From an uncultured delta proteobacterium (GTDB taxonomy: Bacteria; Myxococcota_A; Polyangia; Palsa-1104): DNA of 64,000 nt. The notes beneath the pieces were generated by a model. The model searched no databases, was not told the DNA's origin, and saw nothing but the letters and a program-made list of their open reading frames with translations. Positions 1-4,385 of the stretch are shown piece by piece (positions within the stretch are counted from its first letter, which is position 1; each line of letters opens with the position of its first letter). A program made the translations under genes and the position numbers. Where the stretch lies: assembly GCA_963785725.1 (NCBI GenBank), contig CAWAWS010000020.1, forward strand, positions 1 through 64,000. The letters are read 5' to 3'.

Positions 1-716
1 ACGCGCACTACGGAAGCCATGCAGCGCACCCAGCTTGAGCGCGAGCGTGCCTCGGCGGCGCGCGAGCGGGAGCTCATGAACGCGCAGGTCGAGGCGCAGC
101 GGGCACTGATCGAGAGCCAGCGTTCGCAAATGCAGCTCGTCGTGTCGCTGTTCGAGCGCGTTACAGGCGCAGGCGATCCGGTGTCGCTGATCAAGCAGCA
201 CACGAGCATTCAGCGCGCGATCGACAGGCAGCGCAACGCGGACGAGGAGGCCTATCAGCCCATTGCGCAGACCGAAGTGCCGTGGTGGGTCTCTGTGGTC
301 TCGCAGCTCGCGCCGGCGGTCGGAATGTGGGCTGCGGGCAAGTCGCCGCAAGAGATTGCGGCGGCGCTGGCCCAGCAGGCCGGCGCGGGGCTTTCGATTC
401 CGATCGCTCAGGCCGCTGTGACGGTTCCGGCAGCACCAGCGCCCGCGCCCATCGAGACGCGGAGCGGACGCCCGCTCCGCCGACTGTGCCAGCCGGACCG
501 ACGCCGAACGAGAAGATGCAACAGGCGCTCGACACGATGAGCGAAGCGGAGCGGACGGCGATCAAGAAGGCGGTCGAACGACTCAGCGATGATGTCTTCG
601 AACGGATGATGCGCTACGTTGCAGGGCTCTCCGTCGCCGAAACTGCCGCGTGGGTTCGCTCGAACTTCGTTGAAGCGACCACGCCTTCTCCGACGAACGG
701 CCAAGTGCTCGGATGA
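1..716 (+). CDS. Element hypothetical protein (coiled coil, Ala/Pro linker, C-terminal helical domain); probably 5'-truncated by the window, with a frameshift near 450-470
   Basis: ORF 19..540 (coiled coil, PWWVSVVSQLAP) continues plausibly in the frame of ORF 282..716 (PAPPTVPAGPTPNEKMQQALD...); stop overlaps the next ATG (ATGA, 713-716). Confidence 0.65.
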
Positions 717-1302
717 AGGCAGTCACACGACGCGAGCTGATGGACATGCTGGCGCCGATGGCGGGCGCGGTCCTGGGCGGCGCCTGCTGCAGCTTCGTAG
801 CCGAGCGACTGAGCCTCCGCAAAGAGGCGGTGGCGCTCGGCGCGCTCGCCGGCGGTCTCGCGATAGCCGGACACACGCGCGGGCTCGCGCAACAGTTGGC
901 GACCGGAGTCGCGGCTGCGGGCGCCTCCGTGCTTGCCATGGAAATCCTGGCTCGACTGCGGCCCGATTGGACGCTGTTCGCGGCTCGACGTCAGCCGCGA
1001 CGGCGACCCAAGCGGTCACGCGACATGAGCTGCAGGAGGCGCTGGCGCGAGCGGAAGCCAAACGGAACGACGCCGCTGACGACGGCAACGACGCCAGCGA
1101 ATGAACCGACTCAGGACCAAGTCGAAGCGGTCTGAATCGGCTGTCATCAGAGGAGCGGATCGCGCTCGAAGACTTGCGCAGCAAATCACCAGCGCTTGTC
1201 ATCCTGCAGGTCGAGCAGCAGCTCCGCAGCATCTCGACAGAGGAGGGCGTCGCCTTCTTGCGGGCGCACGTGTTGCCGCACGCGAGCCCGCATGCGCGCT
1301 GA
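713..1302 (+). CDS. Element hypothetical membrane protein with a C-terminal helical domain; apparent frameshifts near 985, 1075 and 1131
   Basis: Hydrophobic Gly/Ala-rich N-terminus; unlisted frame 1132-1302 reads LNRLSSEERIALEDLRSKSPALVILQVEQQLRSISTEEGVAFLRAHVLPHASPHAR*, with its stop overlapping the next start. Confidence 0.55.
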
Positions 1303-2164
1303 CGACTCCACGCTCATGCAGGCGGTGCTCGCGCGAGACGCGCGGGCTTGGCGGCAGTTCGTCGCTTTGCACGAGCCGCGCTTGCGCCAGGCTGCCCACG
1401 AGGCGGTTCTCGAAGAGCGAGTGCTCACGGAGGATGAAGTCGACGACGTGCTGGGCGATTTCTGGCTCATGTTGCTGGAGGACGATTTGCGTCGGCTGCG
1501 CGGCTTCGCCGGCGATGACCTGGCCGCGTGGCTGACCCTGCTCGCGGGTCAGCTCGCCGCAAACCGCCTCCGGCGGCTCGCCCGCCAGCCCAGGACGGAG
1601 CCGCTGCCGGACGGCGACCGCATTGCGGCTCTGCCGGTCAGCGACCTTCTGACGACGTCAGAGGCCGCCAGCTACTGCGGATTCAAGACGACCGCCGGCC
1701 TGCGCAAAGCCAAGATGCAAGGCCGCGTGGCCGCTGTCGGACGGCGCGGCGGCGTCGGCCCGATGATGTGGAGCCGGAGTGACCTGAATCACTTTCTGCG
1801 AGGGGCTGCGCCCGGGCATATAATCCTGGGCTGCGCGGGAACGCCCCCACCAAGGGGCACGCATGAGCAAGAAGTGGGTCATGAAATGGAACGTCTACAT
1901 AGCCGAGCGCCCGATCCGACCGGGCGTCTGGAGAAGGAGGGACGGAGGCTTTCTCGTACGGGGAAAGGCGATGGATCCCCGCACGCGTCGACGCAAGGAA
2001 GTGAAGAAGGTCTACCTCGACACGGAGGACCCCGACGTGGCGCTGGCGCGCCTCCGCGAAGAGCTGCAGCAGACCCGGCAGGGCGCGAGCCGAGAGGCTC
2101 GAACGCTGCCGCGGTTCAGCGAATTCGCAGCCTCGTTACTGGAGCGAAAGCTCGCGTCGGCTGA
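1292..2164 (+). CDS. Sigma70 region-2-like domain fused to an excisionase-like (HTH_17) domain; C-terminal extension overlaps the integrase
   Basis: DSTLMQAVLARDARAWRQFV...EVDDVLGDFWLMLL...LAAWL...AANRLRR resembles ECF region 2; LLTTSEAASYCG...MWSRSDLNHFL resembles Xis/HTH_17; ATG at 1292. Confidence 0.7.
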   Translation: MRADDSTLMQAVLARDARAWRQFVALHEPRLRQAAHEAVLEERVLTEDEVDDVLGDFWLMLLEDDLRRLRGFAGDDLAAWLTLLAGQLAANRLRRLARQPRTEPLPDGDRIAALPVSDLLTTSEAASYCGFKTTAGLRKAKMQGRVAAVGRRGGVGPMMWSRSDLNHFLRGAAPGHIILGCAGTPPPRGTHEQEVGHEMERLHSRAPDPTGRLEKEGRRLSRTGKGDGSPHASTQGSEEGLPRHGGPRRGAGAPPRRAAADPAGREPRGSNAAAVQRIRSLVTGAKARVG

Positions 2165-3371
2165 GATCAAGAGCGGCAAGTCGATCGAGGTCTGGGGCAC
2201 CGTGCTGGAGAAGCACCTGATTCCGGCGTTCGGCGAATATCGCGTCGACGAGCTCACCAAGCTCGACGTCGAGGAGTGGAAATCGAAGATGGGGCGGCTC
2301 GTTCACAGCGGCAAGTACGCTCCAGCGACGGTCAACAATCTCCTCAAGTACCTGCGAGTGATCATCAATGCGGCGTGCGCGGATTACGAGCTGGAGCGCA
2401 ATCCGATCACGTACGTCAAAGACCTCGATGCGTCCGAGCACCACACGTACACCGAAGAGGAGCCGAACTCGCTCACCGCCGACGAAATGCCGAAGTTCCT
2501 GGCGGCGGTGCGCGACCTCTATCCGCAGCATTTTGCGTTCGTCGCGCTCGGATTCGCGACGGGGCTTCGGCCGTCTCACATGCGGCCACTCCGTCGAAAG
2601 GGCGCGACGCCGGACGTGAACTGGGAGGAGGGCACGCTGCTCGTCCGTCGATCGGAAACGGCCGGGAAGGTCATGAACACGACCAAGACCAACCTGCTGC
2701 AGAAGATCGGGCTGCCGAAGGATCTGATGTCGATCCTGAAGTGGCAGGCGGACCGCATCGACGCCTCGATCGGGCCGATGCGCGACTCGGAGCTGCTGTT
2801 CCCGTCGGAAACGGGAGGCTTCCGCGCCGCGAGCTGCCTCGACAAGCCATTCGACAGCGTGGGCGAAGCGCTCAAGCTGAAGAAGGCGATCACGGCGCGC
2901 GCGATGCGGCGGACGTTCAACGACCTGTGCCGCCGGGCGCGGGTCGAGAGCGTGGTGACGAGGTCGATCTCGGGTCACGCGACGGAGCAGATGAAGCAGC
3001 ACTACGAGACCGTGGACGTGGAGGAGAAGCGCGACAGCCTCGCGAAAGTCATCTCGCTGGCCGGCTTCCGCCAGGCGTTCCTCGGAAGCGTGGGTGCTCC
3101 GGATTCTGGCTGCTGCCGCGGACGGTGGAGCGCTGCATTGACTGCCGCGAACGTGATCGAAAGGCTGCGGGTGCTCCGGACAGCGACGGGAAATCGGATA
3201 TCGATCTGTCGAAAGGGTAGGCCAGGAACAAAAACACCCAGATCGAAGGGCGACCTGGGTGCTCATTGGGGTGCTCCGGAGGAGCCTGGAGCCGCTAAGT
3301 ACTTGTGGGGCGTGCAGGATTCGGACCTGCGACTTCCACCGTGTGAGGATGGCACTCTACCGCTGAGTTAA
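1863..3371 (+). CDS. int: Tyrosine recombinase/integrase
   Basis: TGLRPS (catalytic R), RAMRRT (HxxR position), SGH and HY motifs; adjacent to tRNA; the conserved core appears to end near 3080 but the frame stays open to TAA 3369-3371. Confidence 0.92.
   Translation: MSKKWVMKWNVYIAERPIRPGVWRRRDGGFLVRGKAMDPRTRRRKEVKKVYLDTEDPDVALARLREELQQTRQGASREARTLPRFSEFAASLLERKLASAEIKSGKSIEVWGTVLEKHLIPAFGEYRVDELTKLDVEEWKSKMGRLVHSGKYAPATVNNLLKYLRVIINAACADYELERNPITYVKDLDASEHHTYTEEEPNSLTADEMPKFLAAVRDLYPQHFAFVALGFATGLRPSHMRPLRRKGATPDVNWEEGTLLVRRSETAGKVMNTTKTNLLQKIGLPKDLMSILKWQADRIDASIGPMRDSELLFPSETGGFRAASCLDKPFDSVGEALKLKKAITARAMRRTFNDLCRRARVESVVTRSISGHATEQMKQHYETVDVEEKRDSLAKVISLAGFRQAFLGSVGAPDSGCCRGRWSAALTAANVIERLRVLRTATGNRISICRKGRPGTKTPRSKGDLGAHWGAPEEPGAAKYLWGVQDSDLRLPPCEDGTLPLS
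3092..3280 (+). repeat. Direct repeats GGGTGCTCCGGA (candidate integrase arm-type sites)
   Basis: Exact 12-mer at 3092-3103, 3169-3180 and 3269-3280; partial GGGTGCTC at 3257-3264. Confidence 0.8.
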
Positions 3372-3377
3372 CGCCCC
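3306..3377 (-). tRNA. tRNA-Val (anticodon CAC)
   Basis: Acceptor stem GGGGCGT/ACGCCCC, D-stem ACTC/GAGT, anticodon arm CCATC-CTCACAC-GGTGG, T-arm GCAGG-TCCGAAT-CCTGC; CCA not encoded. Confidence 0.93.
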
Positions 3378-3394
3378 GAAACAACGTCGCGCCT

Positions 3395-3423
3395 TTTCTA
3401 ACCTCGCGCCACCGCCACGTCAA
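3395..3423 (-). promoter_or_regulatory. Candidate sigma70 promoter of tRNA-Val
   Basis: TTGACG-17 nt-TAGAAA on the minus strand just upstream of the tRNA. Confidence 0.45.
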
Positions 3424-3482
3424 GTAGCTCTTTCGCCTCGCCCGCCGACCACCCCGCCACCGCCACCTGCTACATTCGCCGC

Positions 3483-4385
3483 GTGCTCCGCGCCACCGCC
3501 CTCACCATGCGCTTCGCCGGCGGCGTCACCGCGCTCGACGCCGTCTCGTTCGAAGCCCGCGCCGGCCAAGTCCTCGGCTTTCTCGGCCCCAACGGCGCCG
3601 GCAAAACCACCGCCATGCGCATCTGCACCGGCTTCCTCGCGCCCACGTCCGGTCGCGTGACCATCGGTGACGTCGATGTCGCCGACGATCCGCTCGCCGC
3701 CCGCGCCCGCCTCGGCTACTTGCCGGAATCGGTGCCGCTCTACCCCGAGATGCGCGTCGACGAATACCTCGGCTATCGCGCGGCCCTCAAAGGCGTGCCG
3801 GCGAAAATCCGCCGCGCCCGCATCGACGAAGCCATCGCCTCCGTCGCCATCGCGCCCGAACGCCGCCGCGTCATCGGACAGCTGTCCAAAGGCTACCGCC
3901 AGCGCGTCGGGCTCGCCGACGCCCTGCTCCACGCGCCCGACGTGCTCATCCTCGACGAGCCCACCGACGGCCTCGATCCCAACCAACGCCGCGACATACT
4001 CGATCTCATCGCGCGGCTGGGCCAAGATCGCGCCGTGATCCTGTCGACGCACATCTTGCCCGAGGTGGAGGCGGTCTGCGCGCGCGTCGTCATCCTCGAT
4101 CGCGGCCGCGTCATCGCCGAGGGCGCGCCCGCCGCGCTCATCGACGCCGACCGCGACCTGCACGTCGTCGCCCGCGGCGAACGCGACGCGCTCGTCGCCG
4201 CCATGCGCGCCGTCGACGGCGTCGTCAGCGTCGACGGCGAAGCCGACCGCTACCGCGTCCGCAGCGACCGCGACGTCCGCGAGCCGCTCGCCCGCGCCAT
4301 CCTCGCCGTCGGCGAATTACGCGAGCTGCGCCCCGCCGCCGCCGGCCTCGAGCGCGTCTTCGCGACGCTGACCGGTCGCGCATGA
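3483..4385 (+). CDS. ABC transporter ATP-binding protein (GldA-like)
   Basis: GPNGAGKTT Walker A, LSKGYRQR signature, ILDEP Walker B. Confidence 0.92.
   Translation: MLRATALTMRFAGGVTALDAVSFEARAGQVLGFLGPNGAGKTTAMRICTGFLAPTSGRVTIGDVDVADDPLAARARLGYLPESVPLYPEMRVDEYLGYRAALKGVPAKIRRARIDEAIASVAIAPERRRVIGQLSKGYRQRVGLADALLHAPDVLILDEPTDGLDPNQRRDILDLIARLGQDRAVILSTHILPEVEAVCARVVILDRGRVIAEGAPAALIDADRDLHVVARGERDALVAAMRAVDGVVSVDGEADRYRVRSDRDVREPLARAILAVGELRELRPAAAGLERVFATLTGRA

Follow-up and report, generated by a model that had tools for sequence, protein, structure and literature searches.

The DNA analysed here, called the window throughout, is a stretch of 64,000 nucleotides from an uncultured delta proteobacterium and forms the start of contig C20 in an 8.9-Mb assembly. 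The genes and sites with which it begins are, in their order along the window, the following (+ and - denote the strand).

1..716, +: probable 3' part of orfA, truncated at the contig start and lying in two frames; assigned by its position and by a shared C-terminal helical domain
713..1301, +: orfB, with a hydrophobic N-terminus and a four-helix C-terminal domain; spread over several frames in the window
1292..2164, +: sigma2-Xis fusion gene, 290 amino acids, the folded part being residues 1-173 in the AlphaFold model
1292..1585, +: predicted ECF-type sigma region 2 (sigma2), four helices, with the acidic region 2.2 residues D51, D52 and D56, and with F72, W80, L84 and Q87
1586..1642, +: linker of about 20 residues, keeping the start of an ECF sigma2-sigma4 linker (P at W80+20, L at +25)
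1643..1810, +: predicted Xis/BldC/MerR-type winged helix (residues 118-173), of a type shared with the stand-alone Xis genes of loci L001-L003
1811..2164, +: unconserved tail, mostly the -1 frame of int
1819..1824, +: TATAAT box, 44 nt before the int ATG, found also in fused and unfused relatives; probable -10 element of a housekeeping-type int promoter, judging from sequence
1863..3371, +: tyrosine integrase gene, int (Phage_integrase 33.8 bits, cut-off 27.1; phrog_1 E 2e-36)
3092..3280, +: three exact 12-nt direct repeats (3092, 3169, 3269) and a partial one (3257), probable integrase arm sites
3302..3347, no strand: att core, the 3' part of tRNA-Val; three repeats of it on contig C22
3305..3377, -: tRNA-Val(CAC), the integration target

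The fusion ORF had been described in the first-pass annotation as lying directly upstream of int; it does adjoin int, but as an open frame it overlaps the first 100 codons of that gene (1863 on), in the -1 frame. The codon score marks 1292-1645 as gene-like (+0.17), is neutral across the winged helix and falls below zero past 1811 (-0.47 for the tail), and the integrase frame has the coding signal from 1863 onward; in the L053-L054 pair of relatives, dN/dS of the tail is 1.3 in the fusion frame against 0.33 in the int frame; finally, a -1 frame stays open for at least 99 codons in 52% of 104 host genes. On account of these codon scores, of dN/dS by frame and of the commonness of open -1 frames in the host, the tail is likely to be a by-product of the int frame, with a function unlikely. 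A sigma2-Xis-Int protein made by frameshifting was also considered and rejected, since int is preceded by an SD and a TA box of its own, and a -1 run-on such as the tail is to be expected. At the other end, the ATG of the fusion gene (1292) overlaps the stop (1299-1301) of the last frame of orfB, a start-stop overlap that couples the two genes translationally.

An indel error merging two separate genes had been named beforehand as the check to be made on the fusion, and indels are indeed present in the assembly, in which rpoC is frameshifted or split and the adjoining orfB is frameshifted as well. Contigs of three of the four short-read runs compared, however, cross the sigma2-Xis linker without a gap (X1, 1381-2502, at 96% identity; X3, 1502-1797; X2, 1565-2273), and the same in-frame fusion, which was to be sought beside homologous integrases, recurs in full-length homologues; for these two reasons the artefact is rejected and the fusion stands, the merged-gene explanation being practically out of the question. 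The short-read contigs over orfB, unlike those over the linker, do show gaps, so that the frame breaks of orfB are likely to be assembly indels or decay. Among 21 sequencing runs listed, none was of RNA.

Downstream, the coding signal of int ends near 3089, and its frame continues through the att arm into the tRNA gene; the int gene of the relative L053 stops before its own att arm, and a 1-base gap lies at 3107 in one compared contig. In three fused and three unfused relatives alike, int follows a housekeeping-type TA box; a scan for bipartite sigma70 promoters over positions 1-3500 returned no sites. The TATAAT box is flanked by a 9-nt direct repeat (1803-1811 and 1828-1836), which is a candidate Xis site. 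Further copies of the tRNA-Val 3' end are found on contig C22 of genome G000 (215686-215872, 232696-232751 and 279399-279441); three such copies, the last at the contig end, point to islands in tandem and to a left end of the element that was left unassembled. C22 ends inside the att core, which may reflect a mix of excised and integrated forms; no excision joint was seen among the compared short-read contigs, all from related strains. At two other loci (L053:9866-9938 and L045:15432-15506) an intact tRNA gene lies on the strand of the integrase, which points towards its 5' end; in L045, where this gene is tRNA-Gly, a second xis-int element stands at its 3' end. These two integrases may target the 5' halves of tRNAs.

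Two predicted domains in one frame

The roughly 100 N-terminal residues had been read as ECF sigma region 2, and the following domain as an Xis/HTH_17-like one standing in place of sigma region 4; structure comparison bears out both assignments. Pfam gives no match on the N-terminal half of the window protein; NCBIfam sigma-factor models match its residues 2-108 at E 6e-5, and Pfam Sigma70_r2 matches 15 of 56 family members (E<=0.01). The AlphaFold model (pLDDT 89.6, pTM 0.58) consists of two domains, the linker being a low-pLDDT block at residues 101-120. Residues 1-100 align to sigma2 of AlgU (Z 10.9, rmsd 2.3, 89 residues aligned), to SigW (Z 10.8, rmsd 3.2, 93 aligned) and to SigK (Z 10.3, rmsd 2.1, 85 aligned), and their best 25 structural matches are all sigma-factor-containing entries. 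A Foldseek search with the fusion model has no match at E<=0.001, but its best-ranked entries are of the same families, with region 2 of E. coli sigmaE in first place; Atlas structure matches are all under 0.9 and serve as leads only.

As for the second domain, the window protein scores E 0.006 and 17.2 bits against HTH_17, below the 27-bit Pfam cut-off, while HTH_17 matches 28 and TIGR01764 21 of the 56 family members. Residues 117-173 align to Pukovnik Xis (Z 6.5, rmsd 1.7, 52 aligned) and to BldC (Z 6.0, rmsd 2.0, 52 aligned), and residues 104-172 to RdfS (Z 6.8, rmsd 4.1, 64 aligned); the fold of residues 118-173 is thereby shared with RdfS of ICEMlSymR7A (PDB 8dgl), Pukovnik Xis (4j2n) and BldC (6amk). 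Profile matches in the PDB include sigmaE, BldC and Pukovnik Xis at E 0.0008-0.006, with CnrH and SigH weaker. Sigma4 is absent: its place is taken by the Xis-type winged helix, and a sigma4 profile scores in none of the 82 rows of the clade described below. The ORF at 1292-2164 is thus predicted to encode an ECF sigma region 2 fused in frame to a winged helix of the Xis/BldC type. By modelled fold and by position, the protein would be a winged-helix excisionase with an added sigma2 and, having no sigma4, not an ECF sigma factor. With the ECF (group 4) sigma factors it shares the fold and sequence of sigma2, differing from them in the lack of sigma4 and in a diverged region 2.4; since the ECF reclassification, as described in the available part of that paper, required both sigma2 and sigma4 (PMC7826278), fusions with sigma2 only would have been filtered out of it.

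The cassette and its relatives

The full gene order, found at L005, L049, L053 and L060, is a divergent XRE or WYL regulator, orfA, orfB, sigma2-Xis, int and tRNA; L045 has the same order without a recognised regulator, and seven more loci have it in part. Among 23 loci with a fusion-clade sigma2, five end too soon, and in 17 of the 18 others a recombinase comes next (16 tyrosine, one serine; L048 has none). WYL-domain regulators, in place of XRE, occur at L053:5237-6220, upstream of 4425 in L060, at L109:9713-10612 and at L110:4892-5905, and suggest induction by DNA damage or single-stranded DNA.

Neither orfA nor orfB matches a Pfam or PHROG family. For orfA, structural matches in the Atlas are under 0.9 with TM under 0.5, and the orfA profile has no match on window positions 1..716. 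Pfam RskA_N matches the C-terminal domain of orfB in three of 15 cases (best E 0.005); with Foldseek, RskA comes second for this domain, but at E 4.0 and rmsd 11.8, and a wide structure search gave a best Z of 4.5 with no anti-sigma factor among the best 50 matches. One profile derived from the sigma4 of the parent ECF found no sigma4 partner gene in the cassettes. Genes for capsid, packaging, replication, relaxase or conjugation were not seen in the short cassettes, the window's own element being cut by the contig start.

Relatives of orfA occur in 45 of 401 genomes of the class. Among 20 orfA loci examined, three (L107, L109 and L110) are cassettes that lack sigma2 and have a plain Xis instead, and many are longer elements, in which M23 peptidases occur together with a sigma-like gene of a different kind; an Xis-int module of the window's type also occurs without sigma2 (L001-L003). 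The longer integrating elements of the same orfA family (8-10 kb; L051:7614-13996, L108, L113-L121, L123 and L124) carry the sigma-like gene and orfA, followed by several genes without assignment, small hydrophobic proteins and one or two M23 peptidases, and then by a tyrosine or serine recombinase at a tRNA, with no capsid, replicase or relaxase recognised; possibly they are an undescribed virus-like element, of which the short cassettes would be reduced forms.

In a quick tree of 191 sigma2 domains (99 columns, midpoint root), 82 rows, some of them duplicates between protein ids and loci, split off as a fusion clade with SH-aLRT 100; an Xis-type head is present in 35 of these 82 rows, against none of the other 109. 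The remaining 47 rows have no scored winged helix, many being cut or frameshifted and about 20 ending in a short helix; among the copies of the clade, L048, L050 and L052 are frameshifted. Loci L066 and L067 were left out, having no sigma2 match. In one of the 47 (protein P0057) sigma2 runs straight into a tyrosine integrase, and at L062:301-2705 a sigma2-plus-helix gene precedes a large serine recombinase. A second group of sigma2 genes without sigma4 (about 40 sequences, in which a basic tail and an RGGxW-like motif are frequent) lies opposite an XRE gene, in the place of cro (L006:7934-8326, L050:7888-8109 and L051:7614-8093).

Elsewhere in the host genome there are two further fusions, both of them preceding an integrase, as well as three full ECF relatives and a gene next to a tRNA that consists of sigma2 only. 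The nearest full-length sigma relatives are an orphan chromosomal ECF present across the host's class (profile E about 1e-21). In a survey of that class, 97 of 301 genomes matched at E<=1e-12, with no more than 10 candidates scored per genome, and 30 loci drawn from it comprise 23 full ECFs and seven members of the fusion clade (genomes G000, G206, G271, G020, G276, G131 and G031). In a phylum sample of 401 genomes, fusions occur in the window's own genome only, the two other matches being full ECFs. In viral contigs, neither the 21 pattern matches of the fusion profile nor the 37 matches of the orfA profile were confirmed, and 50,697 phage records and 72,556 plasmid records gave no relatives. 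The family is likely to consist of small integrating elements of myxobacteria.

The orphan ECF, often beside glpK, was seen in the region L007:6850-6875 (G000:C14:148870, minus strand) and at L021, L024, L026-L028, L033, L035, L036 and L043. A GAACTT...TTGCGTCT motif stands upstream of it in about 10 of 26 loci, with only eight loose matches in the host genome, and the orphan ECF is likely, as far as this motif can tell, to be autoregulatory. No conserved anti-sigma gene neighbours the parent ECF in the 14 loci viewed.

Conservation of sigma2 and exchange of heads

Sigma2 is under purifying selection, dN/dS being 0.11-0.39 in ten of ten pairs, with synonymous sites near saturation in several. 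Its residues were compared between two fusion subclades, A (32 rows) and B (46 rows), and 62 full ECFs. The acidic residues of region 2.2 have a role in core binding known from sigma70 genetics; D51, D52 and D56, to which this role would fall by their position in an alignment with sigmaE, are conserved (D52 in 94% and 91% of the two subclades, D56 in 97% and 67%, with mostly E otherwise), and W20, L69, R70, F72, L77 and W80 are kept as in the 62 full ECFs. In region 2.1-2.2 the conservation of residues equals that in full ECFs, whereas region 2.4 shows drift: N has given way to Q or E, D91 (95% in ECFs) is mostly lost, and R94 is found in 88% and 48% of the two subclades; in subclade B the equivalent of I85 is mostly polar (H 35%, Q 33%, R 22%) and the -10 residues are eroded. 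The window's subclade keeps F72, W80, a hydrophobic residue at 84 and a polar one at 87, the window protein having Q87 in place of N; in 18 of the 32 rows of subclade A a loop is three residues shorter than in the parent ECF. In an alignment with SigH, W80, L84, Q87 and F72 of the window protein correspond to SigH W81, I85, N88 and F72, which, in the accessible part of the SigH study, are described as forming the melting wedge and the -10 pockets, with polar substitutes said to occur at N88 (10.1101/534826); N91 matches the residue at the same place in both sigmaE and SigH.

Of the link to RNA polymerase proposed in the first-pass annotation, the binding of sigma2 to core is favoured by fold, residue conservation and selection, and binding in some form appears quite probable; recruitment and sequestration are not distinguished by these data. 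The putative -10 motif of the parent ECF is not enriched in 13 fusion elements over five controls or over the genome rate, and no target promoter of the fusion protein emerged from this search; a cluster of motif matches at int starts was set aside, being due to the integrase's own codons and present also in controls.

The winged-helix head adjoins its cognate integrase at the att site and co-varies with it. A single clade of the 41 fused heads, set against 17 stand-alone rows (one of which, L052, is a split copy), is rejected (p-AU 5.6e-6, 58 columns); there are at least five unrelated head types, several of them next to unfused Xis in the tree. In a comparison of 13 loci, the more alike two integrases are, the more alike are their Xis heads (Mantel rho 0.51, p 0.0007), whereas sigma2 similarity does not follow that of the integrase (rho -0.02), the value for sigma2 against Xis being 0.15 (p 0.09); kin among the 13 loci are not independent, so that the p values overstate the significance. 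Repeated loss of sigma2 could yield the same pattern of heads as repeated capture. Sigma2 and Xis are in frame in 16 of the 17 loci holding both, and the start of the linker is conserved in fusions and parent ECFs alike. That the head might take over a -35-like recognition, as had also been suggested, gains from its start at the position of sigma4 in 25 of 37 fusions (33-52 residues after W80, the lead helix of sigma4 in parent ECFs lying at about +36 to +40); it loses from the swapping of unrelated heads, from linkers 30-50 residues longer, with an extra helix, in 11 of the 37 (one more has a deletion), from the roughly 20 members with a short helix instead, and from the want of a target promoter.

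Possible modes of action

The explanation that we favour, tentatively and with a probability of roughly 0.4, is that the protein is a DNA-tethered sigma-like activator which is also an excisionase; it is preferred on two grounds: the linker and the melting residues have been conserved, and a sigma2 by itself should require a tether. Until a stress signal arrives, the orfA-orfB-sigma2Xis operon would be kept silent by the divergent regulator (XRE or WYL). Acting as excisionase, the winged helix would attach to att arms and promoters of the element itself; sigma2 would dock core RNA polymerase, by its beta-prime coiled coil, and assist in opening a promoter nearby. Like other winged-helix RDFs, the protein may oligomerise on element DNA, and the oligomers would raise the local concentration of a sigma2 too weak alone to hold core, so that excision and a burst of element transcription would come from one protein; specificity would stem mainly from the head, with a relaxed reading of the -10 element, as in dCas12f-sigmaE. 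This explanation has on its side the two folds, the in-frame fusion, the cassette, the selection on sigma2 and the swapping of Xis-int behind it. Against it count the missing target promoter, the TA box that precedes int regardless of fusion, the 47 rows without a winged helix, the residue drift of subclade B and the long linkers; a winged helix, moreover, is not known to have a beta-flap surface. The plain-Xis cassettes and the sigma2-free Xis-int modules imply that sigma2 is not needed for excision. A bolder version, which must be called doubtful, makes the protein a natural modular sigma factor, in which sigma2 and linker would come from a host ECF, the excisionase of each captured integrase would have been plugged in repeatedly, and the RDF would program the start sites of RNA polymerase.

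As the main rival reading has it, sigma2 might instead bind core without initiating, as a decoy competing with host sigma factors or as a roadblock parking polymerase at Xis-bound promoters, damping transcription (for example at the int promoter) during excision of the element. The better conservation of region 2.1-2.2 than of 2.4, clearest in subclade B, the free variation of heads and linkers and the absence of a target promoter from the search all agree with this, as does the toxicity of Sig7-8, the overproduction of which kills cells, core competition being discussed as a cause of such toxicity in the available part of the report (10.64898/2026.10.01.756105); the drift of region 2.4, in fact, fits a decoy or roadblock as well as it fits a tethered activator. 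The -10 residues kept in the window's subclade, the match of N91 to sigmaE and SigH, and the weakness as a competitor to be expected of an isolated sigma2 without sigma4 make it, on balance, somewhat unlikely. That the two domains work independently, sigma2 as a -10-only sigma factor or with a partner in trans, and the fusion merely securing co-expression with a captured Xis-int, would account for the proteins of sigma2 and a short helix, for the second sigma4-less group and for the plain-Xis cassettes; we regard it as unlikely, given that the frame is held across unrelated heads where a start-stop overlap such as that at orfB would suffice for co-expression, and that no sigma4-like partner gene was found in the cassettes.

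Two further explanations dispense with polymerase altogether. Sigma2 could be a protein handle, by which an anti-sigma-like partner (the C-terminal domain of orfB or a host protein) holds the excisionase inactive until a signal, or which aids oligomerisation much as the extra helix of RdfS might; the coupling of orfB to the fusion gene and the few RskA_N matches of its C-terminal domain speak for such a partner, but cassettes that lack sigma2 have the same domain, no anti-sigma gene is a conserved neighbour of the parent ECF in the loci viewed, and the acidic core-binding residues are kept, all of which leaves the handle rather improbable. More improbable still is that a host sigma gene, once truncated, left sigma2 on an ordinary excisionase as a neutral remnant: the clade is patchy (seven of 301 class genomes among the loci examined) and several copies are frameshifted, and yet the dN/dS values are low and the fold is intact across pairs with similarity scores down to 0.2-0.3.

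Some known systems resemble the tethered activator in part. Winged-helix RDFs that regulate transcription, phage 186 Apl included, have their gene directly before the integrase, as here; RdfS, described as an RDF and a regulator of transcription in one, binds promoters as well as attP and has an extra N-terminal helix (PMC11963761, in the text available), and none of the winged-helix excisionases compared has, in the sources as far as accessible, a sigma2 domain such as the fusion protein carries. In Tn916, according to the available portion of the report, the split sigma Sig7-Sig8 binds RNAP, drives xis/int and is needed for excision (10.64898/2026.10.01.756105), so that there, too, a mobile element encodes a sigma2-bearing chain without sigma4; in the split sigmas described in the accessible sources (Sig7-Sig8, B. 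subtilis SigO-RsoA, T4 gp55-gp33), however, the sigma4 function comes from a second chain, whereas the fusion has its sigma2 on an excisionase. In SigI, sigma4 is replaced by the SigIC domain (PMC6582324), and dCas12f supplants -35 recognition for sigmaE (10.1101/2025.06.10.658880); in both, to judge from the parts available, upstream specificity does not come from a standard sigma4/-35 contact, as proposed for the fusion, but the SigIC domain is fixed and the RNA-guided dCas12f is a separate partner, while the head of the fusion is a swappable excisionase of putative activity. The uoi-int pair of myxophage Mx8 likewise joins an HTH gene to int, with the att site inside the 3' end of the int frame; no sigma2 is reported for uoi in the accessible text (PMC6070905), and the read-through of the window's int has no coding signal, close relatives stopping before the att arm. 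By analogy, the fusion protein may in its working be most like Tn916 Sig7-8 and RdfS combined. A search of the open-licence literature did not turn up any account of a fusion between sigma2 and an excisionase.

As far as the available sources go, every known sigma2 lacking sigma4 has either a separate partner or a fixed domain in place of sigma4; here sigma2 stands on at least five unrelated excisionase heads, and under selection. If initiation is true, an arbitrary small DNA-binding domain can replace sigma4, which would put the minimal needs of a sigma factor to the test and offer a ready scaffold for programmable activators; were the modular version true, this would be a sigma factor with a swappable DNA-binding head, regulating an undescribed family of orfA-orfB elements. 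If the decoy is true, a mobile element would have a new means to throttle host transcription at excision. Under either reading, the fusion is the mark of a family of integrating elements in which the remaining genes are without a Pfam or PHROG match.
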